Notes: generated by a model not told the origin, from the letters alone. 64,000 nucleotides of DNA from Candidatus Woesearchaeota archaeon (GCA_016192905.1 JACPTG010000004.1:173734-237733); one strand, 5' to 3'. Positions 17,726-64,000 are shown, numbered from the stretch's first letter. Numbers and translations: made by a program.

Positions 17726-18001
17726 ATGCTCAAGACCAAGAAGCTTATTGAAACCTATGACATGAAGGTATTCACCGACTCAGGGGAGTACTTCGGAGAC
17801 GTTGAGGAGGCAATATTAACACCAACAAAGATAATCGGCTGGAGGGTCAAGGCTACAAGAACGAGCTTCCTGAACAAAATCCTCGGAGGAGGGGCAAAAG
17901 GGGTAATAGTGCCGCACCAGCACGTAAAGTCAGTGGGCGACGTCATGATAATAAGCAAAATGGCAGTGCCAACCTACAGCAAGGAAGCAGAGAGTGACTA
18001 G
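17726..18001 (+). CDS. PRC-barrel domain protein
   Basis: 91 aa. YDMKVFTDSGEYFGDVEEAIL…IIGWRV… SD GGAGGGGT and a TATA (aactttaaataaat) lie upstream. Confidence 0.72.
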   Translation: MLKTKKLIETYDMKVFTDSGEYFGDVEEAILTPTKIIGWRVKATRTSFLNKILGGGAKGVIVPHQHVKSVGDVMIISKMAVPTYSKEAESD

Positions 18002-20397
18002 CGCTGCTTCAAGATGTCCTTGACAAGCTCAACCACTTCAGGATATTCTTCAGGGTGAAGCATCCCTGTATGGAACGTCCTCACGCCTGAGCAGTTCCCT
18101 GAAACGTAGAAATTATCCGCGAAAGGCAGGTATGCGCTGGATGCCTTCACCACGCCATCCCCGTCCTCGCCAACTGTCCTGCAGCCTGTTCCCACAATGT
18201 TGTAAACAGGAATTCCCGGAGGCGGGCTGGCAGCAAGCTTTCTCATGAAAAAAGAGCCCGCTTCCATATCCCGGCACTCCTTCTCCTCGCCAAAAAACCC
18301 GCAAATCTGGCTTTCAGTTGAATTGATGCCCTGGTTTGGTGTGCCAAGCATAATCAGGGCTGCAACAGAGCCATCGCCAAAAATACTCATATAACTCCTT
18401 GAGACCAGGCCGCCCATTGAATGGGCAACGATAACAACCTTATCCCTGCCGGTGCGCCTCTTAACAACCTCAACAAGGTCCCGCAGCCTAACAGCAAGGG
18501 CTGTTATTTCCTGGCTTGGCCGCCTAACAGGCTCATAGCCGACCACATCATAATAGTAAGTGACCGCTATGAGAACAGGCTTTCCTGACAAACCCCAGTC
18601 TCCTTCAGAGACGTTCCCGGACTCATAATAAAGGACTCCTGCGTTGACAAATCCCTCCTTCTGAAGCTCACGCTGGATGGGCCCAAAGGCGCTGGCGCTG
18701 AATTCAGGCTGGTTCCTGCTATTGAATGAACGGCCGTGCACTAAAACAACCGGGAAGGTCTGGCTGTCATTCCTGCAGAAAACACAGCAGGGCCTGCACT
18801 GGCCCAGCACGCAGCAGACAGGGTAAGGAGTGTCCAGCGAGAAGTTAACATACTGAAGGCTGACATTGACTGCCTGAACGTCAATGAATGAAAGATTTTG
18901 CCTGCCGAAATTAACCGTGACATCAGGAAGCCCATCACAGTGGTATTTCCTGAATTCAGCTACAGAAGGGCTTAAGTTAAAGGCAAGCCTCAATGCAGGG
19001 TCGGGTGAAAGGGCCTTGTTGAGTGAAAGATTGAATTCTAATTCCTGAAGCGAGGCAATGAATTCAGGCCGGGAAAGCAGGCCGCGCATGTCAAGGTATG
19101 AATAAAGGTAAGGATATGCATCGGAAAAATTTTTTGAAATATTCATCGAATCCAAGACCCTTGTTGAGTAATAAACCTGACCCCAGTAAAATGTGCTCTG
19201 CAGATCCTCTGCATCGGCGCAGGCATAACTCATCAACGAGCTGATGTTTGTGCGGGTGACAGGGGGGTAGTACCTAGGGCCATAATAAGCCGGGCAATAG
19301 CCCTTAACCCTGCAAATGCGGTCCACCTCCCCTGAGAAATTAACCTGGGAATCAGCATAATCAGAGAAAGAGGAAAGGGAATAAGCATGGGCTTCGTCCA
19401 GCTCAGAAAGCAAAAGCTGCTGCTCAGCCAAAACCAGGCTGATGTTTGAATAGTTCCTTATAAACAAACTGTAAGCAGACTGGTTAACAAGGTTTGCAAT
19501 TTCACGCAGCCTTGCCTGCTGGAAAGTGTCGTTAATCTCCACAGCAACCGCGAAATCATCAGAAGCGTTTGTCTCCCCTGAAAGCAGGGTCTCATACTGC
19601 AATAGGCTTTGGTTATAAGCATCCACCAGCAGATTTAGTTCTGAATTAAGGCTAACCACCAAATCCTTGTCAGGCAGAGTGCGGTTTCTGAATTTATCAG
19701 CCAGCAACGCGAATTCCTGCTGGCTCCACAATGTCCTGAAGGACTCAGCTTCAATCAAAAGCTTCTGGACATTATCATTCAAAGCAGACCTGCCCTTTGC
19801 CAGCGAATCAATCCTGGCAGTCTCCTCTGCAAAGGCAAGCCTGGCCTCAAGAACCTGGGCGCCTGAGTAAAACCCGTTCACATCCCCAAGGTAAGAAGCC
19901 AGAGGCTGCCCAAGCTTTCCCTTAAGCTCAAGCTCCTCAGCAGTGTAGTCATAATTAAGGGTGACAAAAGAGGATGTCACAAACGGGCCATAAGAGGAAG
20001 AGCATCCAAACCGCCCAATGTTCCTGCACGCTGCCTCGAAATTGTACACAAACTGGCCCTGGCCACGCCTGGAAAGACTAAGCGAATAATTCCTAGGAAA
20101 AGCCTCGCCGCGCTTCAGCAGGACCGTGCCGTTATCCAAAACACGGCCTTCACTGGTGTCAACAAACCTGTAGCTGCATTCGGCACTGCAAAGAGTCTTT
20201 GGAAGCGCAACCAATTCAAATGAGGCATTAACCTCATCCCCATAATGCGCCCTGTAACTGGCCTGGGAAGGGCTAACCCTTGCGGAAATATCAGCAGTGC
20301 CGATAACGTTCAACAATACTGCCAGGATAATGGTGGACAAAGCAACAACAACAAACAGCCCTGCAAGGAAAATCTCGCGCTTCCGTGACCTTCGCAT
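17998..20397 (-). CDS. large membrane-anchored extracellular protein with C-terminal alpha/beta-hydrolase (lipase-like) domain
   Basis: 799 aa. N-terminal signal-anchor. More than 20 N-x-S/T sequons. The C-terminus has VLVHGRSFNS…VVIVAHSMGGLV, an AHSMG lipase nucleophile elbow. Confidence 0.65.
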   Translation of the reverse strand: MRRSRKREIFLAGLFVVVALSTIILAVLLNVIGTADISARVSPSQASYRAHYGDEVNASFELVALPKTLCSAECSYRFVDTSEGRVLDNGTVLLKRGEAFPRNYSLSLSRRGQGQFVYNFEAACRNIGRFGCSSSYGPFVTSSFVTLNYDYTAEELELKGKLGQPLASYLGDVNGFYSGAQVLEARLAFAEETARIDSLAKGRSALNDNVQKLLIEAESFRTLWSQQEFALLADKFRNRTLPDKDLVVSLNSELNLLVDAYNQSLLQYETLLSGETNASDDFAVAVEINDTFQQARLREIANLVNQSAYSLFIRNYSNISLVLAEQQLLLSELDEAHAYSLSSFSDYADSQVNFSGEVDRICRVKGYCPAYYGPRYYPPVTRTNISSLMSYACADAEDLQSTFYWGQVYYSTRVLDSMNISKNFSDAYPYLYSYLDMRGLLSRPEFIASLQELEFNLSLNKALSPDPALRLAFNLSPSVAEFRKYHCDGLPDVTVNFGRQNLSFIDVQAVNVSLQYVNFSLDTPYPVCCVLGQCRPCCVFCRNDSQTFPVVLVHGRSFNSRNQPEFSASAFGPIQRELQKEGFVNAGVLYYESGNVSEGDWGLSGKPVLIAVTYYYDVVGYEPVRRPSQEITALAVRLRDLVEVVKRRTGRDKVVIVAHSMGGLVSRSYMSIFGDGSVAALIMLGTPNQGINSTESQICGFFGEEKECRDMEAGSFFMRKLAASPPPGIPVYNIVGTGCRTVGEDGDGVVKASSAYLPFADNFYVSGNCSGVRTFHTGMLHPEEYPEVVELVKDILKQR

Positions 20398-20486: not shown

Positions 20487-20573
20487 ACGGCAGTGGTCAA
20501 ACGGCATGACAGGAGCTTCCCAAGGCAATGCTGCAAAAAGCTTCTAGTCCGGGTTCAATTCCCGGCTGCCGTA
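20487..20573 (+). tRNA. tRNA-Gly(CCC) with 16-nt intron at canonical position 37/38
   Basis: Acceptor ACGGCAG/CTGCCGT with discriminator A. D-arm GTCA…TGAC. Anticodon stem GGAGC/GCTTC, loop TTCCCAA. T-arm CCGGG-TTCAATT-CCCGG. The intron is AGGCAATGCTGCAAAA. A TATA (tttataaatg) lies upstream. Confidence 0.7.
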
Positions 20574-20634: not shown

Positions 20635-20748
20635 ATGGAAACAGCGGTAGAGCCTGAAAACTGCCCTATATGCGGCAGGTTCATCTCCTATGCAAGGGGC
20701 GACCTCTGCTTTTGCACAAACTGCGGGTACCGGGATGACTGCTGCTAA
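20635..20748 (+). CDS. small Zn-ribbon protein (37 aa)
   Basis: METAVEPENCPICGRFISYARGDLCFCTNCGYRDDCC. Contains CPxCG…CxxC pairs. Below the ORF-track size cutoff. Confidence 0.3.
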   Translation: METAVEPENCPICGRFISYARGDLCFCTNCGYRDDCC

Positions 20749-20873
20749 AATGTCCCTGAAACTGAAAGAGTGGTAAAATGGCAAAGGCCACCTTAGATAA
20801 GCTGTCTGCACCACCAACAAAAAATCACAGTAAACTATATAAAAGAACCAGGGTTTCTTAACAATTGTTAAAA

Positions 20874-21233
20874 ATGATGCGGCTTCCACAGGAGATACAG
20901 GTATGGTATGTGCTGCCTGCATTAAGGAGGGAGCTTGCCATATTGCTGGCGCATTCCACGCCGAGGAAAGAAATAGCAAAAACACTCGGGGTATCAGAAG
21001 CGGCAGTATCCCAATACCTGAGCTCAAAAAGAGGCAACAATGTGGCATTTGACAGGCAGATAATGGGCCAGATAGCAGCCGCAGCCGCGCGGATAAGCAG
21101 AGACAGCAGCCAGGCAATGGCTGAGCTGATAAGGCTGTCAGAGCTGCCGGGCGTAATGCAGGCGATGTGCCGCCTGCATAAAGAACAGGAGCCTTCTGTG
21201 GAGAAGGGCTGCGACATCTGCTTCAGGAGATAA
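20874..21233 (+). CDS. HTH transcriptional regulator with C-terminal Cys cluster
   Basis: HTH segment RKEIAKTLGVSEAAVSQYL. C-terminus …CRLHKEQEPSVEKGCDIC. TATA (ctatataaaag) upstream. Immediately precedes sufB. Confidence 0.55.
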   Translation: MMRLPQEIQVWYVLPALRRELAILLAHSTPRKEIAKTLGVSEAAVSQYLSSKRGNNVAFDRQIMGQIAAAAARISRDSSQAMAELIRLSELPGVMQAMCRLHKEQEPSVEKGCDICFRR

Positions 21234-21234
21234 C

Positions 21235-23652
21235 ATGGCAGAACTAGACCTATTGAATCTGGACTATGAGGACAAATACGGGTTCAGAGACCCTGAAGTC
21301 TACGTCAAAAAACTGCAAAAAGGCCTCTCAGCAGAAGTGGTCCGGGAAATATCAGAAACAAAAGGCGAGCCAGAATGGATGCTCAAATTCCGGCTGAAAG
21401 CGCTTGACATATTTTACAGGAAAAAGATGCCTCAATGGGGCGCAGACCTGTCTGCAATAAACTTTGACGACATCATCTACTACATCAAACCATCTGAGAG
21501 AAAGGCAACAAACTGGGAGGACGTGCCTGAAAAAATCAAGCAGACCTTTGAAAAGCTAGGCATACCCGAGGCTGAGAGAAAATTCCTTGGCGGCTCAGGC
21601 GCGCAGTATGAATCAGAAGTCGTGTACCACAAGCTCAGGGAAGACCTTGAGAAGAAGGGAGTGGTGTTCCTCGACACCGATACCGGCCTGAAGGAGTATG
21701 AAAGCCTGTTCAAGCAGCACTTCGGGACTGTGGTTCCCCCCCACGACAACAAGTTTGCCGCGCTCAACAGCGCAGCATGGAGCGGCGGGAGCTTCATCTA
21801 TGTCCCGAAAAACGTAAAGGTGGACATGCCCCTGCAGGCCTATTTCAGGATAAACGCCCAGAGCATGGGACAGTTTGAAAGGACGCTTATAATGGCAGAT
21901 GAGGGGGCGTCTGTTACATACGTCGAGGCCTGCACAGCCCCCATGTATTCAACCAATTCGCTGCATGCGGCCGTGGTTGAGCTTATCGCAATGAAAAATT
22001 CCAAAATCAGGTACACCACCATACAGAACTGGTCAAGCAATGTGTACAACCTTGTAACAAAAAGGGCATTCGCCTATGAGCATGCATTTGTCGAGTGGAT
22101 TGACGGGAATTTGGGCTGTTTATCCGGCGACGCACAGGTTTTCCTAAACAGTAACCTCAAGCCTATTTCGGAAGTGCAAGCGGGCGATAGCATTTTTGCG
22201 ATGGATGGCTATTTCAATTTAGAAAAGCGAAAGGTTGCCAGCAAAAAATTCAGCGGCAAGCAAAAAATTTTCAAGCTTAAGACACTAAACCACCGTGAAA
22301 TAAAGGCCACTGCAAGCCACCCTTTTCTTATTTTCAGAAAGCTTGGCAAATTCAGCTTTGCTGAATGGACCCCGCTTGATAAGATAAAGATTGGCGACCT
22401 AATCGCCATCTCGGGCCACATCCCCGACTCTGGAGAGCCGTTAAAAATTACGTTTTCAAAAAAAGGCATTAAAGAACTCAAAATCCCCGATGAAACCAAT
22501 GATGATTTGCTATGGCTAATGGGGGTTTACATTGGAGATGGCTATTGCGACAAAAACAGAGTATATTTTGCCGTTCCTGAAACGGACAAGGCCTGCCCCA
22601 AGCTTGTAAGGCTGCTTAAAGAGATTTTCGGAGTTGCCGGGGAAAGGAAGGGGGTCGTCCTTAGAATTGCCTCGGTAGACTTGGTAAGGTTTATCAAGCA
22701 AACTCTTGGGTTCTATGGCACTGCCCAAACCAAACGGATACCTGGCTGGATTTTTACCATTCCAAAATCCCAGCGGCTTGCCCTATTAGACGGATATATA
22801 GCCGCTGATGGATACATCCGCGAAAATCATACAAACATATCCATAACCAGCTCTAACAGGCAGCTTCTTTCCGAAGTGAAAATGCTGGCAATAACCTGCG
22901 GTTTAAACCCGATGAAAATAAGCACATGGACCAGACGGGAGTTAAAGCCCCTTGGCAAGGAAATTAAGGAATATACACACCACTTTCTCTATTTTGGGGA
23001 GGGAAAATTCGAGAAGGACGTTGTTTTCTGTCCAGTTTCAGATATTACCTTCTGCGGCGAAGAGGACACATGGGATATAGAAGTTGAAGACAGCCATAAC
23101 TTTGTCGCAAATGGATTTATTGTTCATAACTCAAATATCACCATGAAGTACCCGAGCGTTTACCTACTCGGAAGAAACGCGAAGGCAGACATACTATCCG
23201 TCGCGTTCGCTGGCAAGGGCCAGCACCAGGATGCTGGCGGAAAGGCGCTTCATTTTGCTCCGGACACCACATCAACAATAATCTCAAAGTCGATAAGCAA
23301 AGGCGGGGGAAGGACCTCATACAGGGGCCTTTTACATGTTGAGAAGGGAGCGACAGGCGTAAAGTCAAACGTGAGATGCGACGCGTTAATACTGGATGAG
23401 GCATCAAGGTCAGACACATATCCGTACATGAAAATCGAGGAGCAGGACACAACCATAACCCATGAGGCGACAGTTGGAAAAATCGGCGAGGACAAGATAT
23501 TCTACCTAATGAGCCGCGGACTGACCGAGCAGCAGGCAATCGCAATGATAGTCCTTGGATTTGTGGAACAGTTCACCAAAGAACTGCCAATGGAATATGC
23601 TGTGGAACTCAACAGGCTGATAAGGCTTGAAATGGCAGGAAGCGTAGGATGA
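21235..23652 (+). CDS. sufB: Fe-S cluster assembly protein SufB, interrupted by an intein
   Basis: N-extein 294 aa (…FVEWIDGNLG) and C-extein (SNITMKYPSVYLLG…EDKIFYLMSRG…) together make ~466 aa of SufB. Confidence 0.9.
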   Translation: MAELDLLNLDYEDKYGFRDPEVYVKKLQKGLSAEVVREISETKGEPEWMLKFRLKALDIFYRKKMPQWGADLSAINFDDIIYYIKPSERKATNWEDVPEKIKQTFEKLGIPEAERKFLGGSGAQYESEVVYHKLREDLEKKGVVFLDTDTGLKEYESLFKQHFGTVVPPHDNKFAALNSAAWSGGSFIYVPKNVKVDMPLQAYFRINAQSMGQFERTLIMADEGASVTYVEACTAPMYSTNSLHAAVVELIAMKNSKIRYTTIQNWSSNVYNLVTKRAFAYEHAFVEWIDGNLGCLSGDAQVFLNSNLKPISEVQAGDSIFAMDGYFNLEKRKVASKKFSGKQKIFKLKTLNHREIKATASHPFLIFRKLGKFSFAEWTPLDKIKIGDLIAISGHIPDSGEPLKITFSKKGIKELKIPDETNDDLLWLMGVYIGDGYCDKNRVYFAVPETDKACPKLVRLLKEIFGVAGERKGVVLRIASVDLVRFIKQTLGFYGTAQTKRIPGWIFTIPKSQRLALLDGYIAADGYIRENHTNISITSSNRQLLSEVKMLAITCGLNPMKISTWTRRELKPLGKEIKEYTHHFLYFGEGKFEKDVVFCPVSDITFCGEEDTWDIEVEDSHNFVANGFIVHNSNITMKYPSVYLLGRNAKADILSVAFAGKGQHQDAGGKALHFAPDTTSTIISKSISKGGGRTSYRGLLHVEKGATGVKSNVRCDALILDEASRSDTYPYMKIEEQDTTITHEATVGKIGEDKIFYLMSRGLTEQQAIAMIVLGFVEQFTKELPMEYAVELNRLIRLEMAGSVG
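22117..23130 (+). mobile_element. SufB intein with LAGLIDADG homing-endonuclease domain (338 aa)
   Basis: Starts CLSGDAQVFL (block A). LAGLIDADG blocks LLWLMGVYIGDGYC and LALLDGYIAADGYI. Ends …VANGFIVHN followed by extein +1 Ser. Confidence 0.85.
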
Positions 23653-24770
23653 TAGAACTCCTTTCTGCCAGGGCAGTTGAAAATGAGGGGTTCTGGCTCA
23701 AGCGGATTAGAAAGGAGGCTGTTTCAGCAATTGAATGCCTAACGCCTGACAAAAGCCTTTCAGACACCGGTCTGGAGGCGGCCAGAATTATTGGACAGCA
23801 GGAAAAGCCCGAGATATCCATTAACGGCGGGGCGGCCGACATCATGCAGCTGGGCCAGGATGAATGGAAAAGGATTTATGAGAATGCGGTAATCAGGCAT
23901 GATGAGGACTTTTTCACTGCGCTCAACACGGCAGTATTCAATGCAGGGACCATGATTTCAGTGCCAAAGGGGGGCAGGGCCGAGATCAACAGGAAAATTG
24001 TCAGCAAGGGGGCATCCATAATAAGGACAGTGATAATGCTAGAGGAAGGCTCAAGCCTGTCCTTCACAGACACAGCGGAGTCTGCGGAAAGAAACTTTTT
24101 CCACAGCGAGGCCATGGAGATAATAATGAAGGAAAATTCCAATTTGGACCTCACATTCATCAACAGCCTGAACAACAACACAGTGTCTGTCTTCAACCGC
24201 AAGGCAGTGCTGGGAGAAAATTCATCCATTTCCTGGAGCACGCTGACATCAGGCTCATCAATTTGCAAAACAAGGCGGCAGACCAGGCTTGCCGGCCAGG
24301 GGGCATCGGTAAAGGATGCCGAGATAATGCTGTCGGCAGGGAGCCAAAGGTTTGACGTAAGGGCGGATATCATCCATGAGGGCAGGCATACACAGAGCAA
24401 TGTGCTGGCAAAAGGGATACTTGCCGGAGAATCGCGCCAGAAAGCGTATGGAAACGTAAACATAAAAGACACAGCAAAAGGGACAAATTCTGTCCTTGAG
24501 GAACATTCAATCATCCTAAGCCCAGGCGCCAAGGCGGACTCAATACCTGGCCTTGAGATAGAAACAAATGATGTAACTGCAAAGCATGCCGCCACATGCA
24601 CGCAGCTTGACGAGGAAAAGCTGTTCTACATAACCAGCAGAGGGGTGTCACCTACCGAGGCACGGAAGCTTGTAACAAGGGGATTCCTGGCCTCAGCCAT
24701 AGGCAAAATGAGCAACAAGGAACTATTAATGGAGAACGCTGAAAAATGGCTACAACACTCAGCCTGCTGA
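23649..24770 (+). CDS. sufD: Fe-S cluster assembly protein SufD
   Basis: 373 aa with a SufBD beta-helix C-terminus (…EEKLFYITSRG…). Its ATGA overlaps the sufB stop. Confidence 0.85.
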   Translation: MIELLSARAVENEGFWLKRIRKEAVSAIECLTPDKSLSDTGLEAARIIGQQEKPEISINGGAADIMQLGQDEWKRIYENAVIRHDEDFFTALNTAVFNAGTMISVPKGGRAEINRKIVSKGASIIRTVIMLEEGSSLSFTDTAESAERNFFHSEAMEIIMKENSNLDLTFINSLNNNTVSVFNRKAVLGENSSISWSTLTSGSSICKTRRQTRLAGQGASVKDAEIMLSAGSQRFDVRADIIHEGRHTQSNVLAKGILAGESRQKAYGNVNIKDTAKGTNSVLEEHSIILSPGAKADSIPGLEIETNDVTAKHAATCTQLDEEKLFYITSRGVSPTEARKLVTRGFLASAIGKMSNKELLMENAEKWLQHSAC

Positions 24771-25966
24771 CCAAAACAAGAAAGGACTTCCCAATACTTG
24801 GAAGAAACGTAAACGGAAAGCCGCTGGCATACCTGGACAACGCAGCAACAAGCCAAAAGCCAAGGCAGGTAATAGAAGCAATTTCAGCATATTATGAAAA
24901 TTACAATGCAAACATACACAGGGGCATACACCGCCTGAGCGAGGAGGCTACAGCGGCATATGAAGAGGCGCATAAGAAGGCCGCGGGCCTCATTGGAGCC
25001 CGGGAAGGGGAAATTATCTTTACCAAGAACACTACGGAATCATTAAACCTGCTGGCTTATTCCATAGGGCTAACCCTAAGGCCCGGGGATGAAATAGTCC
25101 TTACAGAGGCAGAGCACCACAGCAACCTTGTGCCATGGCAGCAGGTAGCCAAAATAACCCAATCGCAGGTGAAATTCGCGCAGGTAAACGAAAAGGGCGA
25201 GCTGGACATGGAGCACTTCCAAAGCCTTGTAACCAGGAATACGCGCATAGTTGCAGCAGCGCATGTGACCAACGCATTTGGCGCAATCAACCCAGTCAAG
25301 GAAATGGCTGAAATAGCGCATTCAGAAGGGGCGCTGATGGTCGTTGATGCAGCCCAGAGCGTGCCGCACATGCCTGTCTCTGCCAGCCAGCTTGGCTGCG
25401 ACTTTATCGCATTCTCCAGCCATAAGATGCTTGGGCCAACCGGGATAGGCGTGCTCTATGGAAGGAAAAGCGAGCTTGAAAAAATGCACCCATTCCTTTA
25501 CGGAGGGGACATGATAAAGGAGGTAAGTTACGAGGAAACCAAGTTCAACGAGCTCCCATGGAAATTCGAAGCAGGAACGCCAAACATATCAGGGGCTATT
25601 GGATTCGGGGCGGCAATAGACTACCTCTGCAAAATAGGGTTGGACAGCGTGCAAAGCCACGAGCAGGCCCTCACCAGACACGCACTAAAAAGACTTGCCG
25701 AGGAGAAAGACGTCCTTGTTTACGGGCCTGAGAAAAGGGCAGGGATAATCTCATTCAACATCGGGAACGTGCACCCGCATGACGCAGCCGCAATACTTGA
25801 CATGGAAGGCATAGCGGTAAGGGCAGGCCACCACTGCGCAATGCCGCTGATGAAAAAAATGGGGTTGCAGGGGACTGTAAGGGCAAGCTTCTACCTCTAC
25901 AATACAAAGGCTGAAATTGGCAGGCTCGCAGAGGCGCTTGAAAAGGTAAGGAAGGTGTTCAAATGA
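24746..25966 (+). CDS. sufS: cysteine desulfurase SufS (class V aminotransferase)
   Basis: 406 aa. …SSHKMLGPTGIGVLYG… (PLP Lys); RAGHHCA (active-site Cys). Confidence 0.92.
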   Translation: MATTLSLLTKTRKDFPILGRNVNGKPLAYLDNAATSQKPRQVIEAISAYYENYNANIHRGIHRLSEEATAAYEEAHKKAAGLIGAREGEIIFTKNTTESLNLLAYSIGLTLRPGDEIVLTEAEHHSNLVPWQQVAKITQSQVKFAQVNEKGELDMEHFQSLVTRNTRIVAAAHVTNAFGAINPVKEMAEIAHSEGALMVVDAAQSVPHMPVSASQLGCDFIAFSSHKMLGPTGIGVLYGRKSELEKMHPFLYGGDMIKEVSYEETKFNELPWKFEAGTPNISGAIGFGAAIDYLCKIGLDSVQSHEQALTRHALKRLAEEKDVLVYGPEKRAGIISFNIGNVHPHDAAAILDMEGIAVRAGHHCAMPLMKKMGLQGTVRASFYLYNTKAEIGRLAEALEKVRKVFK

Positions 25967-26352
25967 ACGCTGAAATATACCAGCAGCACATTCTGGACCA
26001 TTATTCAAACCCGAGGAACCGGAGGGAAATCGAAAATGCTGACTTGCAGTACAGGGACAGCAACCCCCTATGCGGAGATGAGGTTGCCATGTATGCAAAG
26101 CTAAAGGATGGTCTCATGGAGGACTTGAGCTTCATAGGCCGAGGCTGCGCAATCAGCCAGGCTTCAGCATCAATGATCACCGAAGCCCTGAAGGGAGCAA
26201 GCCTCAGCCAGGCTGCCGAAATGGGAAAAGAAGATGTAACAAGAATGCTCATGATACAAATCAGCCCAACAAGGCTCAAATGCGCATTACTGCCGCTAAA
26301 AACACTCCAGGCCGGAATAAGGGTTTACCAAAATGGCGCTGCTCGAAATTAA
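25963..26352 (+). CDS. sufU: SufU/IscU-like sulfur-acceptor/scaffold protein
   Basis: 129 aa. NPLCGDEV, GRGCAISQASASMITE, PTRLKCALL. Confidence 0.78.
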   Translation: MNAEIYQQHILDHYSNPRNRREIENADLQYRDSNPLCGDEVAMYAKLKDGLMEDLSFIGRGCAISQASASMITEALKGASLSQAAEMGKEDVTRMLMIQISPTRLKCALLPLKTLQAGIRVYQNGAARN

Positions 26353-27094
26353 CAACCTAAAAGTACAGGTGGAAGGCCAGGAAATAGTTAAAGATGCAAC
26401 CCTGTCAGTTGAGGCAGGACAGGTGGCGGCCCTGATGGGCCCAAACGGGTCAGGGAAAAGCACGCTGGCATACAGCCTAATGGGGCACCCGAAATACAAG
26501 GTTACATCAGGAAGCATCATCCTTGGAGGAAAGGAAATTACAACTGCAACCCCTACAGAAAGGGCAAAGGCAGGGCTGTTCCTCTCCTTCCAGTACCCAA
26601 GCGAAATACCCGGCGTAAGCGTTGAAAATTTCCTCAGGGAGGCATACAATTCAGTAAGGGAAAAAAAGATTGGAGTGATGGAATTCCACAAGCAGCTTGC
26701 AGAAAACATGGGGCTGCTGGGCATACCTGAAAGCTTTGCAGGAAGGCACATAAACGAAGGGTTCTCAGGAGGGGAAAAGAAGAAGATGGAAATACTGCAG
26801 ATGTCAATACTGGCCCCGAGAATGGCGCTGCTGGACGAAACAGACTCAGGCCTGGACGTGGACGCCCTGAGGACTGTTGCCGAAGGAATAAAAAGGACAC
26901 TCAACCATGAAAGGGGAGTTCTTCTCATCACGCATTACCAGCGAATCCTTGAATACATAAAGCCGGACAAAGTTTATATAATGAAGTCAGGCAGGATAGC
27001 TGCGGCAGGAAACGCAGACCTGTCTGTAATGGTGGAAAAAAAGGGATATGACTGGGTGACTGACAATGGCCACGTTCAAAGCAAAGCTGCTTGA
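26333..27094 (+). CDS. sufC: Fe-S cluster assembly ATPase SufC
   Basis: 253 aa. GPNGSGKSTL, the ABC signature FSGGEKKKMEIL, and LLDETDSGLD. Confidence 0.92.
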   Translation: MALLEINNLKVQVEGQEIVKDATLSVEAGQVAALMGPNGSGKSTLAYSLMGHPKYKVTSGSIILGGKEITTATPTERAKAGLFLSFQYPSEIPGVSVENFLREAYNSVREKKIGVMEFHKQLAENMGLLGIPESFAGRHINEGFSGGEKKKMEILQMSILAPRMALLDETDSGLDVDALRTVAEGIKRTLNHERGVLLITHYQRILEYIKPDKVYIMKSGRIAAAGNADLSVMVEKKGYDWVTDNGHVQSKAA

Positions 27095-27761
27095 AACAAT
27101 ACAGGAAACCCCAAGGGTCAAGCTTCTAAGGTTCGCAAGGCCAGCCAGCTTTGACTTCAAGCCAGGCCAATTCATAACAGCATCAATAGAAGGCCTCAAA
27201 GGGCCCCATGGCGAAACGGTAAAAAGAAGCTACTCAATAGCCTCCTCGCCGCACGACAAGGACTACATAGAACTCTGCGTGGCAAGGGCTGAAACAGGCT
27301 TGTTCTCAAACGCCCTCCACAAACACAAGCATGGAGAGGAAGTCATAATAACAGGGCCATACGGGGTTTTCCAGCTTAGGGAACCTGTCCATCCAAACAC
27401 CACATTTGTGGCAGGAGGCAGCGGAATCGCGCCAATAAGGAGCATGATAAGGACGCACATGCACAGGGGCGAAAAAACAAACCTCTTTTACGGGTTCAGG
27501 AGCCCTGAAGAATTCATCTACAGGAAGGAACTCACGCAACTCGCGGCAAAGGGCAAAATAAAGCTCTTCCTGACCATCGACAAGCCAGCCAAGGGCTGGA
27601 AAGATGAGGTGGGGTATGTCTCTGAACTCCCTGCGAAGCACGCGAATTACGAAAAGACAGACGCATACATATGCGGGCCGCCAGCAATGGTGACTGCAAC
27701 AATAAAGGCGCTTACAGAGCTCGGATTTGACCAGAAAAGGATATACAGGGAACAGTGGTAG
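27066..27761 (+). CDS. FAD/NAD(P)-binding oxidoreductase (ferredoxin-NADP reductase-like), co-operonic with suf
   Basis: 231 aa. RSYSIASSP is the FAD-binding RxYS motif. GGSGIAPIRSM is the NAD(P)-binding motif. No Fe-S Cys cluster. Confidence 0.78.
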   Translation: MATFKAKLLETIQETPRVKLLRFARPASFDFKPGQFITASIEGLKGPHGETVKRSYSIASSPHDKDYIELCVARAETGLFSNALHKHKHGEEVIITGPYGVFQLREPVHPNTTFVAGGSGIAPIRSMIRTHMHRGEKTNLFYGFRSPEEFIYRKELTQLAAKGKIKLFLTIDKPAKGWKDEVGYVSELPAKHANYEKTDAYICGPPAMVTATIKALTELGFDQKRIYREQW

Positions 27762-27804: not shown

Positions 27805-27956
27805 CAGTACACGAAGCCAGACAGTACACATTGGCGACCTCCCGAAGGGGCTGCTGAAACCAAGGAAGGCACAGCCTGCTACTTGTTAACAGTTTTATAA
27901 GTGATTTCTGCGGATAGAGAACTAAAAAAACCTGTGCGAGCTGACTCTTCGTGAAC
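27805..27956. repeat. ~150-bp intergenic element bounded by imperfect inverted arms (cagtacacgaagccag … ctgactcttcgtgaacag); carries one copy of the dispersed GCTGACTCTTCGTGAAC motif
   Basis: Arms at 27808-27821 and 27939-27956. It also shares the ttaacagtttta and tagtagttg/gttggttg segments with the 29120-29233 intergenic region. Confidence 0.3.
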
Positions 27957-28391
27957 AGACGCCAACCTGTCCAAATCAGCCCTGGACATAACTGCAACAG
28001 TTCCAAACATCGCCTTCAGCCCCTGCCTAAGCGAGGACTTGTCGCAAACAGAGTCATGAAGGTGGGCTGCAACAACCCATTTCTCCTCAGGCTGCGAAAA
28101 AGGGTTGACAAAAACCAGGGTGGCCCTGCTGTCAACAAACGACTTCCACCTGTCAAGCAAAGCCTTAAAATTCTCCGCACTGTTGAAAGTGACAATGGTG
28201 CAGCCTGGCTCAAGCCTGGCCTGCCCAAGAGCAGGAGCAACAATGCAGGGTACAACCCTATCCTTATGCCTTACACTAATCCTGCTGCCCCTGACCTCCA
28301 TTGCCACAATGCTTTTCCTGACAGCATCCCTGTTCCTCAGATAGAGCGTGGCCCACTCAACCAGATATCCCTCCTGATTCATGAAGGCCAA
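27879..28391 (-). CDS. conserved hypothetical protein
   Basis: 170 aa. No motif recognised. Its C-terminal codons overlap the repeat arm, so the true stop is uncertain. Confidence 0.45.
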   Translation of the reverse strand: MAFMNQEGYLVEWATLYLRNRDAVRKSIVAMEVRGSRISVRHKDRVVPCIVAPALGQARLEPGCTIVTFNSAENFKALLDRWKSFVDSRATLVFVNPFSQPEEKWVVAAHLHDSVCDKSSLRQGLKAMFGTVAVMSRADLDRLASVHEESARTGFFSSLSAEITYKTVNK

Positions 28392-31410: not shown

Positions 31411-34357
31411 TCTTGTAGTACTTCTTCCTCAGCTCAGGGCTTATCCTGACAAGCTCAGCCTCAGGCAGGGCTCCCAAAAGAGCCCAAGCAACCCTAAGCG
31501 TATCCTCCTGGACAGACCTGTTCTCATTCCTGGCCTGCCTGACGAACACGTCCTCAAAGGAGGCTGCGAACTTCAAAAGGCGGCGGTCCCTCTCAGCAAG
31601 CGACTCCTCGCCGACAATAGCAGCCAGGCCCCTGAGGTCGCGGCCCTCAGCATAGGCTGCGTACAGCTGGTCTGAAACCTGCTTGTGGTCCTCCCTTGTC
31701 TTGCCCTGGCCGATGCCAAGGTTCATCAGCCTTGACAGGGATGGCAAAACATCAATCGGAGGGTAAATGTTCTTCCGGTGAAGCTCCCTGCTCAGGACAA
31801 TCTGGCCCTCGGTAATGTACCCTGTCAGGTCAGGAATCGGATGGGTGATGTCATCACCAATCATGGTCAAAATCGGAATCTGCGTAACAGAGCCCTTCTT
31901 TCCCTTGACAATCCCGGCCCGTTCATACAGCGAAGCGAGGTCAGTGTACATATAGCCGGGGTAGCCCCTCCTCCCGGGAATCTCCTCCCTGGCCGCGCCA
32001 ATCTCACGAAGTGATTCACAATTTGATATTATTAAGCCATTTCCAACCAAGAATTTTCCTGTTTCTGGAATGGTGACATCAAAAACAAACAAGTCTTTTG
32101 GTTCAGTTACTTTAATGTCTGTGATTTCGTCCAAAATGAATTCATCATTTGCATGTTTCTTTAACTCTTTCAGGATTTCATCATTTTCTGCAACGAGTTG
32201 AGAGAACTTTTCCATGCATTTTACAAGTTGCACTTTACTAATTCTCTTAAAGCCCCGTTCAACTTCAGACAACTGGCCGTTACTGGAAATTTGAGTTTGT
32301 TTTATTCCATATTTATGCCTCAATGCCCTTATTAATGTTCCGCAAACTCTCGGCGCATATTCAAATTCAGCGCTCTCTAAAGCATTATCCTTTACCTTCT
32401 CTAATTTATGTCTTTTATGCGGGTGTGATGCGCCAACTTTTTCAACAAACAAGTTAACATACCTTTTGCCTCTTATGATTATGTCAAACACATTACTCTC
32501 TCCATAAGTGCCTGTAGAGTGCCTATCAACAATGATAGAAGCTATTCCAAGTCTCCTTAAAAGCTGTTGGAGCCTTTTGATAACTTTTTCATTCACAGAA
32601 GTATATTGAATGACCCTTCTATTGACAATGCAGCTGCCATCGCCATCAAAGTAGCCTCTCAAAAATGCAGAAATCAAGTTTTCAGGCAATGAGAACAATT
32701 TCTTAAATTCCTTATCTTTCAAACCAAAGAAAGTTGCTATGTCGCAGTAAGCCTTATTATTAATTCTGCATATACTTACTCCATCTTGACTCTTGAAATC
32801 TGTAATCTGGATGTTGGGGAAAATTGTTGTAATCTTTTTCTTGTATATTTTTCTCAAATCAGAACTTGTATTTGAGAAATCCACGCGATAGATGTGGCTA
32901 TTCTCATTTCTTATCAATGAGCCATCAGAAGCAACTAGCCCTAGCAAGTAAAGTAAGTCGTCGTTTGCGTATGCCGTCGCTATTTTCAATCTATTGCCGC
33001 CAACATGCGATATGGCTGAAATTGCCTTCTCTATTGGCAACTCAGGACATATTTTAATCAATGCTCGAATCTCTTTAACATTCAAGAAACTTTCAGAATC
33101 TGTTAGCCTTGAATAATTAATGCCCGATTCTTTACATGCTTCCTTCAGTGAACCATACAGTTTTTTCAGTTTTTGTTTGCTGGTTTCCCTGACTAACTTA
33201 TCAAAGAAAACAATTGTGTTTTCATTTAATGCATCTATTATGGAAGGAATAGCCGTATTCACATTTATTTTTGATGTAATTGCGACTCTATCACCTTTCT
33301 TTAATTGGCCTGCAGGCGCCATTCTTAGTCCAAGAATCGTGTCTGTCAGTATCCTATGATTTGGCGTCAAGGTTAATTTGTTTCCTGAGCGAGTTGATAG
33401 TTCTATCATTTGCATTGAAGCTGGAAGCTTTTGAACTCGGGCAATCTGTTTAATGGCATCATTATTACCGTCCCATGTTAGCGCTTTTTCTTCCTTATCC
33501 CTAATATCAACATCAGAACCTCTTGTTTGACTTTCAACAAATTCTTTAATTGTTGTTATTCTTCCATCACCTAAAAACATCTCAGTTTCTCCAGCGACGC
33601 AGTAGTTCGTCATATCAGTCAATATTACCAGCACATGCATGTCCTTCTCATACGCAAAATACTCTGCTGCTGTAAGCGCCATTCTTGGAGTTATAAGCCT
33701 CTCCACAGCAGGGTCATCTGCCAGGTTGAGGAATACGAGAGACCTCTTAAGCGCGCCAGTGTTCTCGAAATCAGTAATAAAGCGCTGCGCTTCCTCATTG
33801 GTAATGCCCATTGCGGCAAAGATGACGACAAAGCCAGCCTCTTTGCCCAGAACCCTTGCCTGCCTTGCAATCTGAAGGGCAATGTCGTTGTGCGGCAGGC
33901 CAGAGCCTGAGAAAACAGGCAGCTTCTGCCCCCTGACAAGCGTATTCATCAGGTCAATGGTTGAAATACCTGTCTGGATGAAGTCCTCAGGGCCTGCCCT
34001 GGCCACCGGGTTAATGGCAGCCCCGGTAATGTCAAGCTTATCCTCAGGAATAATTTCAGGGCCGTTGTCAATGGGCTTTCCAGCGCCGCTAAGAATCCTT
34101 CCAAGCATGTCCGGGGAAACAGGCAGCCTGATGTTTTCGCCAAGGAACCTTACGCGGGCATCCCTGTCCAGGCCAGAAGTGCCCTCGAAAACCTGGACTA
34201 CGACTATATCATCACTTGTATCAAGAACCTGGCCTGTCTTTAATTCACCTGAAGGCGTGGCAATCCTTACCAGGTCATTATAGCCAACAGGGTCTGTCTT
34301 CCTTACAAAGACAAGCGGGCCTGCAATCCGTGAAACAGTCTTATACTCCTTTTCCAT
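31385..34357 (-). CDS. atpB: A1AO (V-type) ATP synthase subunit B, interrupted by an intein
   Basis: The N-extein ends …ILTDMTNY. The C-extein begins [36 protein letters not shown]. The exteins sum to ~464 aa. Start taken at MEKEYKTV. Confidence 0.9.
32021..33601 (-). mobile_element. intein in ATP synthase subunit B with LAGLIDADG endonuclease domain (527 aa)
   Basis: Starts [22 protein letters not shown] blocks [14 protein letters not shown] and [11 protein letters not shown]. Ends [11 protein letters not shown] with +1 Cys. In frame. Confidence 0.85.
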
Positions 34358-61846: not shown

Positions 61847-62212
61847 GCTTTTTTTCCCATCCTCAGCCCAATGAATCATGGGATGAAGCGCTCGCATCAG
61901 TTTCTTTCCATTTTTGGTTAAAGAATATTCAACTCTTGGCGGCATTTCATTAAATGAATGCCTTTGGACTATTCTCTCAGCTTCTAATTCCCGCAAGCGT
62001 TCTGTCAAAATCTTGGCTGTTGCTTTTTCAAGCCTGTCCTTAAGCTCGTTAAACCTTAGTATTCCAAAGTTTCCAATGGTAATTATAATTGATATAGACC
62101 ATTTTTTGCTTAGGAAATCAGAAGCCTCTTCAAGAGGCCTGGGACAGTAGCCCTTTAAAGACTTCATTTTACAACACTTAGTATCAATTTGGATAGTTTT
62201 GTTAGTTTCCAT
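61838..62212 (-). CDS. HxlR-type winged-helix transcriptional regulator
   Basis: 124 aa. CPRPLEEASDFLSKKWSISIIITIGNFGILRFNELKDRL…ILTERLRELEAERIV matches the HxlR family. Confidence 0.72.
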   Translation of the reverse strand: METNKTIQIDTKCCKMKSLKGYCPRPLEEASDFLSKKWSISIIITIGNFGILRFNELKDRLEKATAKILTERLRELEAERIVQRHSFNEMPPRVEYSLTKNGKKLMRALHPMIHWAEDGKKSKK

Positions 62213-62292
62213 TTTTAAACTCCTAAATTTAAATAGTAGCTTACTTTATTTGTTATACTAAGTAGATTATTTAAACTTTGTGAGGTGGAACG

Positions 62293-62427
62293 TATGGAGA
62301 AGAGAAAACCCTGCTGCTCAGGAGGCATATGCCCTGCTTGTGAATGCTGCATATGCATTTGCACGAAGGAGTTAAAGAAAATACTCTCGCCGGAAGTGAG
62401 AAAATTGCTACTAAAGGAAATTGATTA
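62293..62427 (+). CDS. Cys-rich 44-aa peptide (8 Cys)
   Basis: MEKRKPCCSGGICPACECCICICTKELKKILSPEVRKLLLKEID*. SD GAGGTGG upstream. Divergent from hxlR. Confidence 0.4.
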
Positions 62428-62458
62428 AGGCAAATAAATTGATGATGAGTGGAAATCT

Positions 62459-62962
62459 ATGCTAAAAGTAATGTATACTGTCTTATCTAACAGGAAATAT
62501 TTAGCAATAGCTATATTTTCCACAATATCATTAATGATTTTATACATCATTTCATTATCTTCTGTGGTTTTAAAATCATTCGATATAATTACTGATACTG
62601 CGATGCTCAGTTCTATTTTCTCTGGCGGTTTGTTACAACTTATTTTAATTGGCGTACTTACAATATTATTTGGCATCTGGTTAGCGATGCAGCTTTATCT
62701 GCGATGGGAAAATAAGGAAATGAAGGCAACTCCAATTGCTGCAGCGAGCGGAAGCGTATTCAGTGGCTTCTTGGGAGGGTTGGGCGCACTTGGGGGATGT
62801 CCTGCTTGCCTCGTTATCATTACAGCGGTTATAGGCAGTACAGCAACCGCATTCCTACTTCAGTACAGGACACCAATTGTGCTGTTAGCAATAGCATTAA
62901 GTGTCCTGTCTATTTATATTACATCAAAATCCATAGAGAATAAATGCGGGTGGTGCAAATGA
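62459..62962 (+). CDS. membrane protein with intramembrane Cys pair (GGCPACL) and C-terminal CGWCK
   Basis: 167 aa, about 4 TM. Confidence 0.5.
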   Translation: MLKVMYTVLSNRKYLAIAIFSTISLMILYIISLSSVVLKSFDIITDTAMLSSIFSGGLLQLILIGVLTILFGIWLAMQLYLRWENKEMKATPIAAASGSVFSGFLGGLGALGGCPACLVIITAVIGSTATAFLLQYRTPIVLLAIALSVLSIYITSKSIENKCGWCK

Positions 62963-63093
62963 CAAAATCTTTTATCTGCCCCGAATGTAATTTTTCCTAT
63001 AGGGGAAAAAAGTGGGCAGAAAAATGCGAAAAGTGGTGCAAGGAGCACAATAGCTGTAATATTGAAATTACAAAACACGCTATTCAAACATGA
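62959..63093 (+). CDS. 44-aa Zn-ribbon-like mini-protein
   Basis: MTKSFICPECNFSYRGKKWAEKCEKWCKEHNSCNIEITKHAIQT*. Its ATGA overlaps the upstream gene. Confidence 0.4.
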   Translation: MTKSFICPECNFSYRGKKWAEKCEKWCKEHNSCNIEITKHAIQT

Positions 63094-63110
63094 TTTTAGT
63101 TAGCCCTTAT

Positions 63111-63150
63111 TTTTAACAAAAACATCCATAGTCCGCCCAAGGCTACTTTT
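63111..63150. repeat. 40-nt intergenic repeat, copy B
   Basis: Identical to copy A. Directly follows the Zn-ribbon mini-ORF stop. Confidence 0.6.
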
Positions 63151-63158
63151 CTATATCT

Positions 63159-63431
63159 TTATTGCTTGCTGATGAACTCCATTATTTCTTTTTTCATTTT
63201 TGGATTTAACGAGACGTGGAGTTCTCCAGTTGATTTTTTGGCAAGAAGCCAACTATCATTAATCAGCTCTTTTATGGCGTTGTCAATCAATTTTTGACCT
63301 TCCTTTGTTGATGTAAAATTGGAAGGGAAACCTTTTTTCAGATTTCTTACATCAGTATGCTTGCCTCCCCATCTAGGAGGAGTTATAAGTCCATCAAGAA
63401 TTATCCTTTTTACAACTTTAGCATCATGCAT
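63159..63431 (-). CDS. hypothetical small protein
   Basis: 90 aa. No diagnostic motif. Lies in the AT-rich island. Confidence 0.4.
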   Translation of the reverse strand: MHDAKVVKRIILDGLITPPRWGGKHTDVRNLKKGFPSNFTSTKEGQKLIDNAIKELINDSWLLAKKSTGELHVSLNPKMKKEIMEFISKQ

Positions 63432-63546
63432 GTTTCAAATCGCCATACACCCCTTAATAACGCTTTCTTCTATAATGATATGATATGATATTAAAACAAA
63501 AGATTTAAATATGCATGGATGTAGCTATAGCCATATATGAAAAGGG

Positions 63547-63891
63547 ATGAACAAAATGGAACAACCGATATTCATTAAAGCGCTTGGTGACACACCGAAG
63601 ATAAGGATTTTGAACTACTTAATAAAGTACCGTGGGTTGGACTACTCGATGTCGGATATTGCCAGGAACAGCAATGTTGGCTGGGCAACTCTTAGCAGGT
63701 TATGGAAAGAATTTGTAGGATTGAAGATAATGACTGCTACAAGAGAAGTAGGAAAGGCGAAACTGTTCAAGTTAAATGAGAAAAATGAAGCAGTCATGAA
63801 GCTTATAGAAGTATACAATAAACTGTTAGAACAAGAAACAGAAGACTATTTTGCCAAAAATACAACAACAGTTAAGTCTACTGTAGAATAA
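63547..63891 (+). CDS. winged-helix DNA-binding protein
   Basis: 114 aa. KIRILNYLIKYRGLDYSMSDIARNSNVGWATLSRLWKEFVGLKIM is HTH-like. Confidence 0.55.
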   Translation: MNKMEQPIFIKALGDTPKIRILNYLIKYRGLDYSMSDIARNSNVGWATLSRLWKEFVGLKIMTATREVGKAKLFKLNEKNEAVMKLIEVYNKLLEQETEDYFAKNTTTVKSTVE

Positions 63892-63902
63892 GAAAAGCCC
63901 CG

Positions 63903-63945
63903 CTTTTTAACAGAAACATTAAGTGTCCGCCCGGGGCTACTCTTT
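63903..63945. repeat. 40-nt intergenic repeat, diverged copy C
   Basis: CTTTTTAACAGAAACATTAAGTGTCCGCCCGGGGCTACTCTTT. The flank GCCCCG…CGGGGC can form a hairpin. Follows the stop of the wHTH gene. Confidence 0.5.
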
Positions 63946-64000
63946 AAATTACCCTAATCTTTATATCTCCTTTGTCCACTACCCAGTGCTTCCGAAGCCG

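Follow-up and report, generated by a model that had tools for sequence, protein, structure and literature searches.

A Candidatus Woesearchaeota SUF operon headed by a putative Cys3His repressor and ending in an FNR-like flavoprotein gene

Known SUF systems and the woesearchaeotal locus

This report deals with a suf locus, predicted to encode the SUF system for iron-sulfur (Fe-S) cluster assembly, in a 64,000-nucleotide (nt) stretch of a Candidatus Woesearchaeota (DPANN) metagenome-assembled genome (the whole stretch is referred to as the window). Among described systems, the closest are the suf operons that SufR controls in cyanobacteria and mycobacteria (e.g., Rv1460-sufBDCSUT), in which the repressor gene is first or divergent from sufB, as is the case for the regulator discussed here. 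Both also have Cys ligands near the C-terminus of the repressor (candidate ligands in the window protein) and a palindrome at the suf promoter that serves as operator (predicted in the window). Moreover, mycobacterial SufB carries an intein (PMC8891592; see also PMC6034842), as does SufB in the window. The window regulator is a 119-amino-acid (aa) Cro/XRE-like helix-turn-helix (HTH) protein with a Cys3His site, whereas SufR is a DeoR/ArsR-type protein of ~200 aa, and the two show no sequence relationship. Relative to the SufR operons, the window locus also has an archaeal TATA promoter, the gene order B-D-S-U-C and an added gene for a flavoprotein of the ferredoxin-NADP reductase type (FNR-like).

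IscR, of the Rrf2 family, follows a like logic, being a product-sensing repressor that heads an Fe-S operon. Its [2Fe-2S] cluster is held by three Cys and one His, a ligand set that the Cys3His site matches. In the literature searched, we found no description of an Fe-S biogenesis regulator in archaea and nothing relevant on Woesearchaeota/DPANN suf loci or on an archaeal suf regulator.

With respect to electron supply, ferredoxin/FNR pairs have been proposed to serve the plastid and apicoplast SUF systems. A 2021 review lists the electron donors to NifU and SufBC2D as unknown and reports that SufBC2D copurifies with FADH2 (PMC8593673). The E. coli flavin reductase Fre supplies FADH2 to SufBC2D and supports cluster assembly in vitro (PMC10594875). 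Fre has the same two-domain FNR-superfamily fold as the FNR-like protein and is of similar size (PDB 1qfj, E=1e-15); the FNR-like protein, however, scores below the Fre cutoff and is encoded within the suf operon, which Fre is not.

The genes of the window locus (20.6-27.8 kb, all on the + strand) follow the order HTH-sufB-sufD-sufS-sufU-sufC-FNR-like, and a 37-aa mini-open reading frame (mini-ORF) lies upstream. On balance, we lean towards reading this locus as a self-contained, autoregulated archaeal SUF operon, with Fe-S sensing by the regulator and electron supply by the flavoprotein as parts of the model. Genes were called by ORF listing and by Pfam and NCBIfam scans, and the features discussed below are the following.

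20635-20748 (+): zinc-ribbon mini-ORF of 37 aa, a Cys-rich ORF with the sequence METAVEPENCPICGRFISYARGDLCFCTNCGYRDDCC
20836-20843 (+): putative TATA box of the operon promoter, TATATAAA, recognized by its sequence
20858-20871 (no strand): predicted operator, the 14-bp perfect palindrome TTAACAATTGTTAA, ending 2 nt before the HTH ATG
20874-21233 (+): HTH regulator with weak HTH matches, starting at TTG 20865 or, more likely, at ATG 20874 (119-aa NCBI model)
21235-23652 (+): sufB, Fe-S scaffold subunit, 805-aa precursor (TIGR01980, 684.8 bits against a cutoff of 346.4; Pfam SUFBD_core)
22117-23130 (+): SufB intein of 338 aa, residues 295-632 (Hint splicing domains and a LAGLIDADG homing endonuclease)
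23649-24770 (+): sufD, scaffold partner (Pfam SUFBD_core, 208 bits against a cutoff of 27)
24746-25966 (+): sufS, type II cysteine desulfurase (TIGR01979, 577 bits against 475.1; RAGHHCA active-site motif)
25963-26352 (+): sufU, sulfur-transfer partner of SufS (TIGR01994, 114.5 bits against 92.5; Pfam NifU_N)
26333-27094 (+): sufC, ABC-type ATPase (TIGR01978, 325.9 bits against 212.8)
27066-27761 (+): FNR-like flavoprotein of 231 aa (FAD_binding_6 and NAD_binding_1), last gene of the operon

The HTH gene and sufB are separated by 1 nt, and the following pairs overlap by 4 (sufB/sufD), 25 (sufD/sufS), 4 (sufS/sufU), 20 (sufU/sufC) and 29 nt (sufC/FNR-like). The seven genes from HTH to FNR-like come after one putative TATA box. 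An earlier, sequence-only reading of this DNA had listed the same genes and the tight overlaps, including the last one; all of the genes are present and the coordinates agree. That reading mentioned neither the SufB intein nor the palindrome TTAACAATTGTTAA nor the His in the HTH motif. It had also called the B-D-S-U-C order non-canonical, which is apt in relation to E. coli or Bacillus but not within the lineage, as tblastn with the window Suf proteins shows B-(D)-S-U-C to be the usual suf order among the related loci.

A Cys3His HTH family associated with Fe-S biogenesis genes

The gene that heads the operon encodes a Cro/XRE-like protein with the C-terminal motif C99-x2-H102-x10-C113-x2-C116. 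The sequence-only reading gave the Cys spacing as C-x12-C-x2-C; the alignment corrects it to C-x13-C-x2-C and adds an invariant His, giving C-x2-H-x10-C-x2-C. That reading had made its case for a regulator depend on conserved Cys residues, and in an alignment of 40 homologs C99, H102, C113 and C116 are all invariant. The motif C-x2-H-x(8-13)-C-x2-C is kept in 132 of the 150 best family representatives, and about 12 more carry Cys in place of His, which is the behavior expected of a metal ligand.

The family is large, comprising 883 clusters at 50% identity (E<=1e-10; HMMER against 1.84 billion representatives). The cluster tables held no names or taxa for ten diverse members, and the first homolog search returned only generic names ("transcriptional regulator", "uncharacterized protein"). 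For the window protein, all Pfam and NCBIfam HTH matches are sub-threshold. Several homologs carry a precomputed PF01381 or PF09048 assignment, and the fusion protein P0326 (see below) reaches 25.7 bits against a cutoff of 23 for HTH_3. Searched against PDB, the family profile matched only Cro/lambda-repressor-like HTH proteins (lambda repressor-like match, E=6e-5), and no member of the family with a solved structure was found. The SufR (TIGR02702) and Rrf2/IscR models gave no match in the Pfam and NCBIfam scans.

A metagenome scan with the HTH alignment yielded 80 loci, which were examined for linkage by tblastn with the window Suf proteins together with the loci from the FNR-like scan (see below). 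An Fe-S biogenesis gene, of either the SUF or the NifS/NifU type, lies within 1.5 kb of the HTH gene in 60 of the 64 informative loci. In many of these a suf operon is the neighbor, either downstream on the same strand or divergent. In seven others (L097, L100, L108, L115, L121, L151 and L154) the HTH gene adjoins genes for a distant NifS/IscS-like desulfurase and a NifU_N protein, an assignment that Pfam confirms for L097. The same two types of neighborhood recur with variants that have four Cys: P0372 heads HTH-SufB-SufD-SufS-SufC-SufT, and P0343 heads HTH-NifS-NifU.

At L164 (4001-5521), a Cys3His HTH domain continues in frame into a NifS-like cysteine desulfurase (P0326), and NifU_N comes next. 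This is weak evidence, since it comes from one contig at ~6x coverage and a lost stop codon gives the same reading as a true fusion.

On the 3.5-kb contig L131, the HTH gene (415-777, +) is placed between a divergent FNR-like fragment (2-250, -) and a PF01613 flavin-reductase-like gene (827-1387, -), and there are no suf genes on this contig. Several contigs whose suf loci are nearly identical or plainly of Woesearchaeota type (L001, L005, L011, L012, L019 and others) are titled "uncultured Methanosarcinales archaeon" in third party annotation records; these titles are probably a taxonomic mislabel.

A predicted operator at the suf promoter

The palindrome TTAACAATTGTTAA sits between the TATA box TATATAAA and the HTH ATG and, judged by this placement, should overlap the expected transcription start. 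In the 64-kb window it is a single perfect copy, with no further copies when one mismatch is allowed. Across 1.95 Mb of related loci there are 66 copies of its core, TTAAC-N4-GTTAA, where base composition predicts 3.9, and nearly all of them are at promoters of HTH genes or of sufB. The motif lies at most 150 nt upstream of the HTH gene in 52 of 84 HTH loci, and most of the other copies are directly 5′ of sufB where the HTH gene is separate or divergent (L103, L105, L112, L124, L127, L132, L146 and L147). Fe-S genes adjoin the HTH gene in every one of the 46 loci with the motif upstream of it. In 49 distinct related promoter sequences, the box TTTAAATA or TTTATATA is found 2-14 nt upstream of the palindrome, and a start codon follows within a few to ~50 nt. 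From a site between the TATA box and the 5′ end of a leaderless or short-leader mRNA, an archaeal repressor would be expected to block recruitment of the polymerase.

Collectively, these comparative data make it well supported that the HTH protein would act as a regulator of suf, by function like SufR and IscR and outside those families. It is likewise well supported that a new Cys3His HTH family would regulate suf and nifSU at TTAAC-N4-GTTAA. The sequence-only reading had named both the HTH protein and the mini-ORF as regulator candidates for Fe-S or redox sensing; linkage to Fe-S genes, conserved ligands and the operator speak for the former, while the latter, present in four loci only and lacking an operator, does not share this support (see below).

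By analogy with IscR and SufR, the Cys3His site would most likely be occupied by an Fe-S cluster that the pathway itself has produced. Some points weigh against this picture. What is said here of the transcription start, of the operon as a unit and of repression is deduced from the DNA. A paralogous Cys3His HTH subfamily (L090, L095 and L138, also L089, L092, L099 and L106) follows a conserved ORF of ~207 aa, which by eye we take to be ribulose-phosphate-3-epimerase-like, and in L090, L095 and L138 it has neither TTAAC-N4-GTTAA nor Fe-S neighbors. Finally, the C-x2-H...C-x2-C spacing is just as characteristic of structural zinc sites.

The last point leads to a different explanation, which we regard as a serious possibility although short of an even chance: Cys3His would be a structural zinc site, and the HTH protein would still repress suf while responding to thiol oxidation, free iron or a partner protein, or would be a simple autoregulator. 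The spacing is classic for zinc knuckles. In the AlphaFold 2 model (predicted local distance difference test score of 88), for which no whole-fold match was found in PDB, C99 and H102 are on one helix and C113 and C116 are in a loop that precedes a short helix, an arrangement compatible with a zinc site. Moreover, homology of the HTH protein to IscR, SufR, NsrR or RirA was not found in the Pfam, NCBIfam and PDB profile searches. What speaks against a purely structural site is that the family heads two Fe-S machineries, SUF and the NifS/NifU type, as one would expect of feedback regulation by product sensing, and that 3Cys+1His is also the ligand set that serves the [2Fe-2S] cluster of IscR. 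With a predicted operator and four residues proposed as ligands, the HTH family is directly testable.

An FNR-like flavoprotein encoded with SUF

The last gene of the operon encodes a protein that is 100% identical to NCBI HYY74_07655 (Candidatus Woesearchaeota archaeon). FAD_binding_6 (48.8 bits) and NAD_binding_1 (80.2 bits) both exceed the Pfam cutoffs and place it in the FNR superfamily. It has the motifs RSYS, GGSGIAP and CGPP and a C-terminal EQW, and RxYS, GxxS/T, GGxGxxP and CGPP are invariant in the alignments. Hence the FNR-family assignment made earlier from RxYS and GGxGxxP stands. The RSYS motif and the C-terminal Trp resemble those of FNR-family enzymes that, we presume, keep FAD bound.

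The closest relatives in PDB are the FAD/NADH domain of MmoC, NqrF, sulfhydrogenase gamma and Fre. By sequence, the FAD/NAD module is best matched by MmoC, BenC and NqrF; those proteins, however, carry an N-terminal plant-type [2Fe-2S] ferredoxin domain, which the FNR-like protein lacks, and the MmoC profile is matched only at positions 135-339 of 343, i.e., in its C-terminal part. No oxygenase or Nqr genes were found near the FNR-like gene.

The genomic linkage was examined with 16 close homologs, as an alignment of 38 sequences was too diverse for the locus scan. All relatives with at least 44% identity (L001-L006) show the arrangement HTH-sufB-(sufD)-sufS-sufU-sufC-FNR, and in each of the seven clade-A loci sufC and the FNR-like gene overlap or are at most 21 nt apart. 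The sequence-only reading had held that a separate promoter for the FNR-like gene would speak against a joint role with suf. The only TATA-like octamer 5′ of the gene is TTTATATA at 26973, inside sufC. It was considered as an internal promoter and rejected: the DNA is unconserved in L002-L006 and falls on the VYIM codons of sufC. This indicates that there is no conserved internal promoter.

A second suf-linked clade of FNR-like proteins (30-35% identity) emerged from the independent HTH-based sample. Here the gene follows sufC in L117 and L129, is placed between a divergent HTH gene and sufB in L127, L146 and L147, and adjoins the HTH gene in L144 and L131. In a neighbor-joining tree the two suf-linked clades are separate and non-sister. 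For other woesearchaeotal relatives outside suf operons (P0014, P0028 and L008), a DUF59/SufT gene is found 0.3-2 kb upstream. In suf operons without an FNR-like gene, the slot after sufC holds SufA/IscA-like, SufT, or ThiS-like plus TtcA-like genes, and for this reason the slot seems to collect Fe-S accessory factors.

That the suf linkage recurs in two clades and involves two positions in the operon supports the earlier suggestion that the flavoprotein could supply reducing equivalents, and a function in Fe-S assembly is moderately supported by this genomic context. The following observations weigh against a dedicated role. The protein exceeds the cutoff of no specific NCBIfam equivalog (87.8 against 230 for Fre, NF005963; 128 against 500 for MmoC). 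It has no ferredoxin domain (PF00111), and there is no ferredoxin gene in the operon. The tree is weak evidence for two independent recruitments because the sequences are distant. In L146 and L147 the operator is between the FNR-like gene and sufB, so that the FNR-like gene there may not be under its control. Last, among the suf operons reached through the HTH protein, only some one in four to one in three has the gene (it is missing from L085, L091, L107, L120, L124, L130, L132, L135, L137, L139 and L159), which makes it accessory, not obligatory, since most sampled suf operons do without it.

In light of these observations, it is possible, if in our estimate unlikely, that the FNR-like protein has no direct role in cluster assembly and is a general NAD(P)H oxidoreductase that shares a stress-induced operon in a streamlined genome. 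As examples, and with the same reserve, it might reduce ferredoxin or flavodoxin, act on O2 or quinones as a stress enzyme, or serve iron acquisition as a ferric reductase. This explanation gains from the absence of a match above any family cutoff at about equal distance from MmoC, NqrF, sulfhydrogenase gamma and Fre, from the many sampled Woesearchaeota suf operons that lack the gene, and from the many relatives at 30-45% identity that are not beside suf. It accords less well with the recurrence of the suf linkage in two clades and two positions, with the proximity to sufT of relatives outside suf operons, and with genuine Fe-S accessory factors otherwise holding the slot after sufC. The overlap of start and stop codons between sufC and the FNR-like gene, furthermore, argues for stoichiometric co-expression. 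An assembly-related function of the FNR-like protein is therefore the reading that we carry forward: translationally coupled to sufC and recurrent in two clades, it is a small soluble candidate for the missing electron donor to SufBC2D.

Proposed mechanism

In the model that we propose, a dimer of the Cro-like HTH protein would bind TTAAC-N4-GTTAA over the transcription start and block recruitment of the polymerase. Occupancy of the Cys3His site would report Fe-S sufficiency, as in IscR or SufR, so that the operon would be derepressed when clusters are scarce or oxidized. SufS and SufU would then mobilize cysteine sulfur, and SufBC(D) would build the cluster, with SufB gaining activity only once its intein has spliced out. 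The FNR-like flavoprotein would spend NAD(P)H to provide electrons for the reduction of persulfide or Fe(III), either directly or by regenerating reduced flavin used by SufBC2D.

In its most far-reaching form, the proposal would be that the Cys3His Cro-like protein founds an archaeal family of Fe-S-sensing repressors, unrelated to IscR, SufR, RirA and NsrR and controlling both SUF and NifS/NifU, and at the same time that the FNR-like protein is the dedicated physiological electron donor to the SUF scaffold. We put forward this combination only tentatively and consider it doubtful that both parts hold. The locus as read here would mean that genome-reduced DPANN archaea keep a complete and regulated SUF pathway instead of depending on clusters supplied by a host.

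The mini-ORF upstream of the regulator gene

The 37-aa mini-ORF has the motif CPxCG-x11-CxCxxCG-YRDDCC. Two CxxC knuckles are evident, and the score for the rubredoxin-like Pfam family PF21349 (22.7 bits) is below its cutoff of 26.5. Of all loci scanned in six frames for its motif, only four have the mini-ORF upstream of the HTH gene: those of the window, L001, L004 and L005. The Cys knuckles do not vary among these copies, and neither does a C-terminal NCGY[RK]DDCC. Between the window and L005, there are eight synonymous and six non-synonymous codon changes at 79% DNA identity, and the flanking spacer is unalignable. This pattern suggests that the mini-ORF is a real gene.

Its membership of the suf regulatory system is doubtful, and we consider it highly improbable that it is a functional component of that system. 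In favor of such a role are its retained position in the four loci with signs of purifying selection and its Cys-rich composition with the unusual C-terminal DDCC. Conversely, L002 and L006 share the operon but lack the mini-ORF, and none of the 80 HTH loci from the metagenome scan has it. The mini-ORF also appears to have its own TATA-like box (TTTAAAT, ~26 nt upstream of its ATG), has no operator motif nearby and lies 5′ of the operator. A search of the protein database with an in-frame extended query found only one relative, the L001 copy.

SUF proteins and the SufB intein

SufB, SufC, SufS and SufU all exceed the curated cutoffs of their NCBIfam equivalog models. For SufD, TIGR01981 (213.3 bits) is just short of the cutoff of 222, with SUFBD_core clearly above its own; it is a SufD-like paralog of SufB. 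The scaffold composition varies across the lineage: among L006 and many of L081-L160, some operons have no recognizable SufD (at L006, 6409-8912, sufB is followed directly by sufS), and in others the sufD slot holds only a gene 25-30% identical to SufB.

The TIGR01980 match of SufB is split into two stretches, and the length of 805 aa is due to the intein at residues 295-632. Intein_splicing (PF14890, 67.7 bits) and LAGLIDADG_3 (PF14528, 38.1 bits) are both detected, and TIGR01443 and TIGR01445 also match. The junctions are DGNLG/CLSGDAQ at the N-terminal and FIVHN/SNITMKY at the C-terminal end. The splicing and endonuclease blocks comprise C295 (Cys1), TASH in block B, VHN/S and the two LAGLIDADG motifs, LMGVYIGDGY and LLDGYIAADGY, and the +1 residue is Ser.

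Inteins in SufB are known in mycobacteria and Ferroplasma, with varying insertion sites (PMC8891592). As in Mycobacterium and Ferroplasma (PMC8891592), SufB in the window is interrupted by an intein with Hint and LAGLIDADG domains, and relatives use several alternative sites; the host lineage (DPANN) is new and the +1 residue is Ser. No counterpart is present in L002, L004, L005 and L006, whereas L003, L088, L105 and L146 have an intein at the site used in the window, and L001 and others at a different one. A comparison of the window, L001 (4803-5858), L135, L130, L137, L142, L147, L159, L088, L105 and L146 gave three sites in the lineage, at extein positions ~186, 232 (TYVEG/C...HN/CTAP) and 294 (DGNLG/C...HN/S). 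The L001 exteins are 97% identical to those in the window, yet L001 has an intein at 232 and an empty site 294, and in the window the reverse is found. In L137, SufB carries a mini-intein of ~170 aa.

Neighboring features in the window

Just 5′ of the mini-ORF, at 20487-20573 (+), is an intron-bearing tRNA (Rfam tRNA, 49.6 bits) whose anticodon arm contains 19 inserted nt. ARAGORN gave no anticodon; by eye, the gene resembles tRNA-Gly(CCC) with a canonical 37/38 intron. Further upstream, 17998-20397 (-) encodes a 799-aa protein. It has a membrane anchor at the N-terminus, numerous N-x-S/T sequons and stretches rich in Cys, and its C-terminal part contains the serine-hydrolase motif GHSMGG. A 170-aa ORF (27879-28391, -) converges on the FNR-like gene and has no match in Pfam or NCBIfam. 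The GC content dips to 0.39 at 32001-34000 and to 0.37 at 62001-64000, compared with ~0.50 elsewhere in the window.

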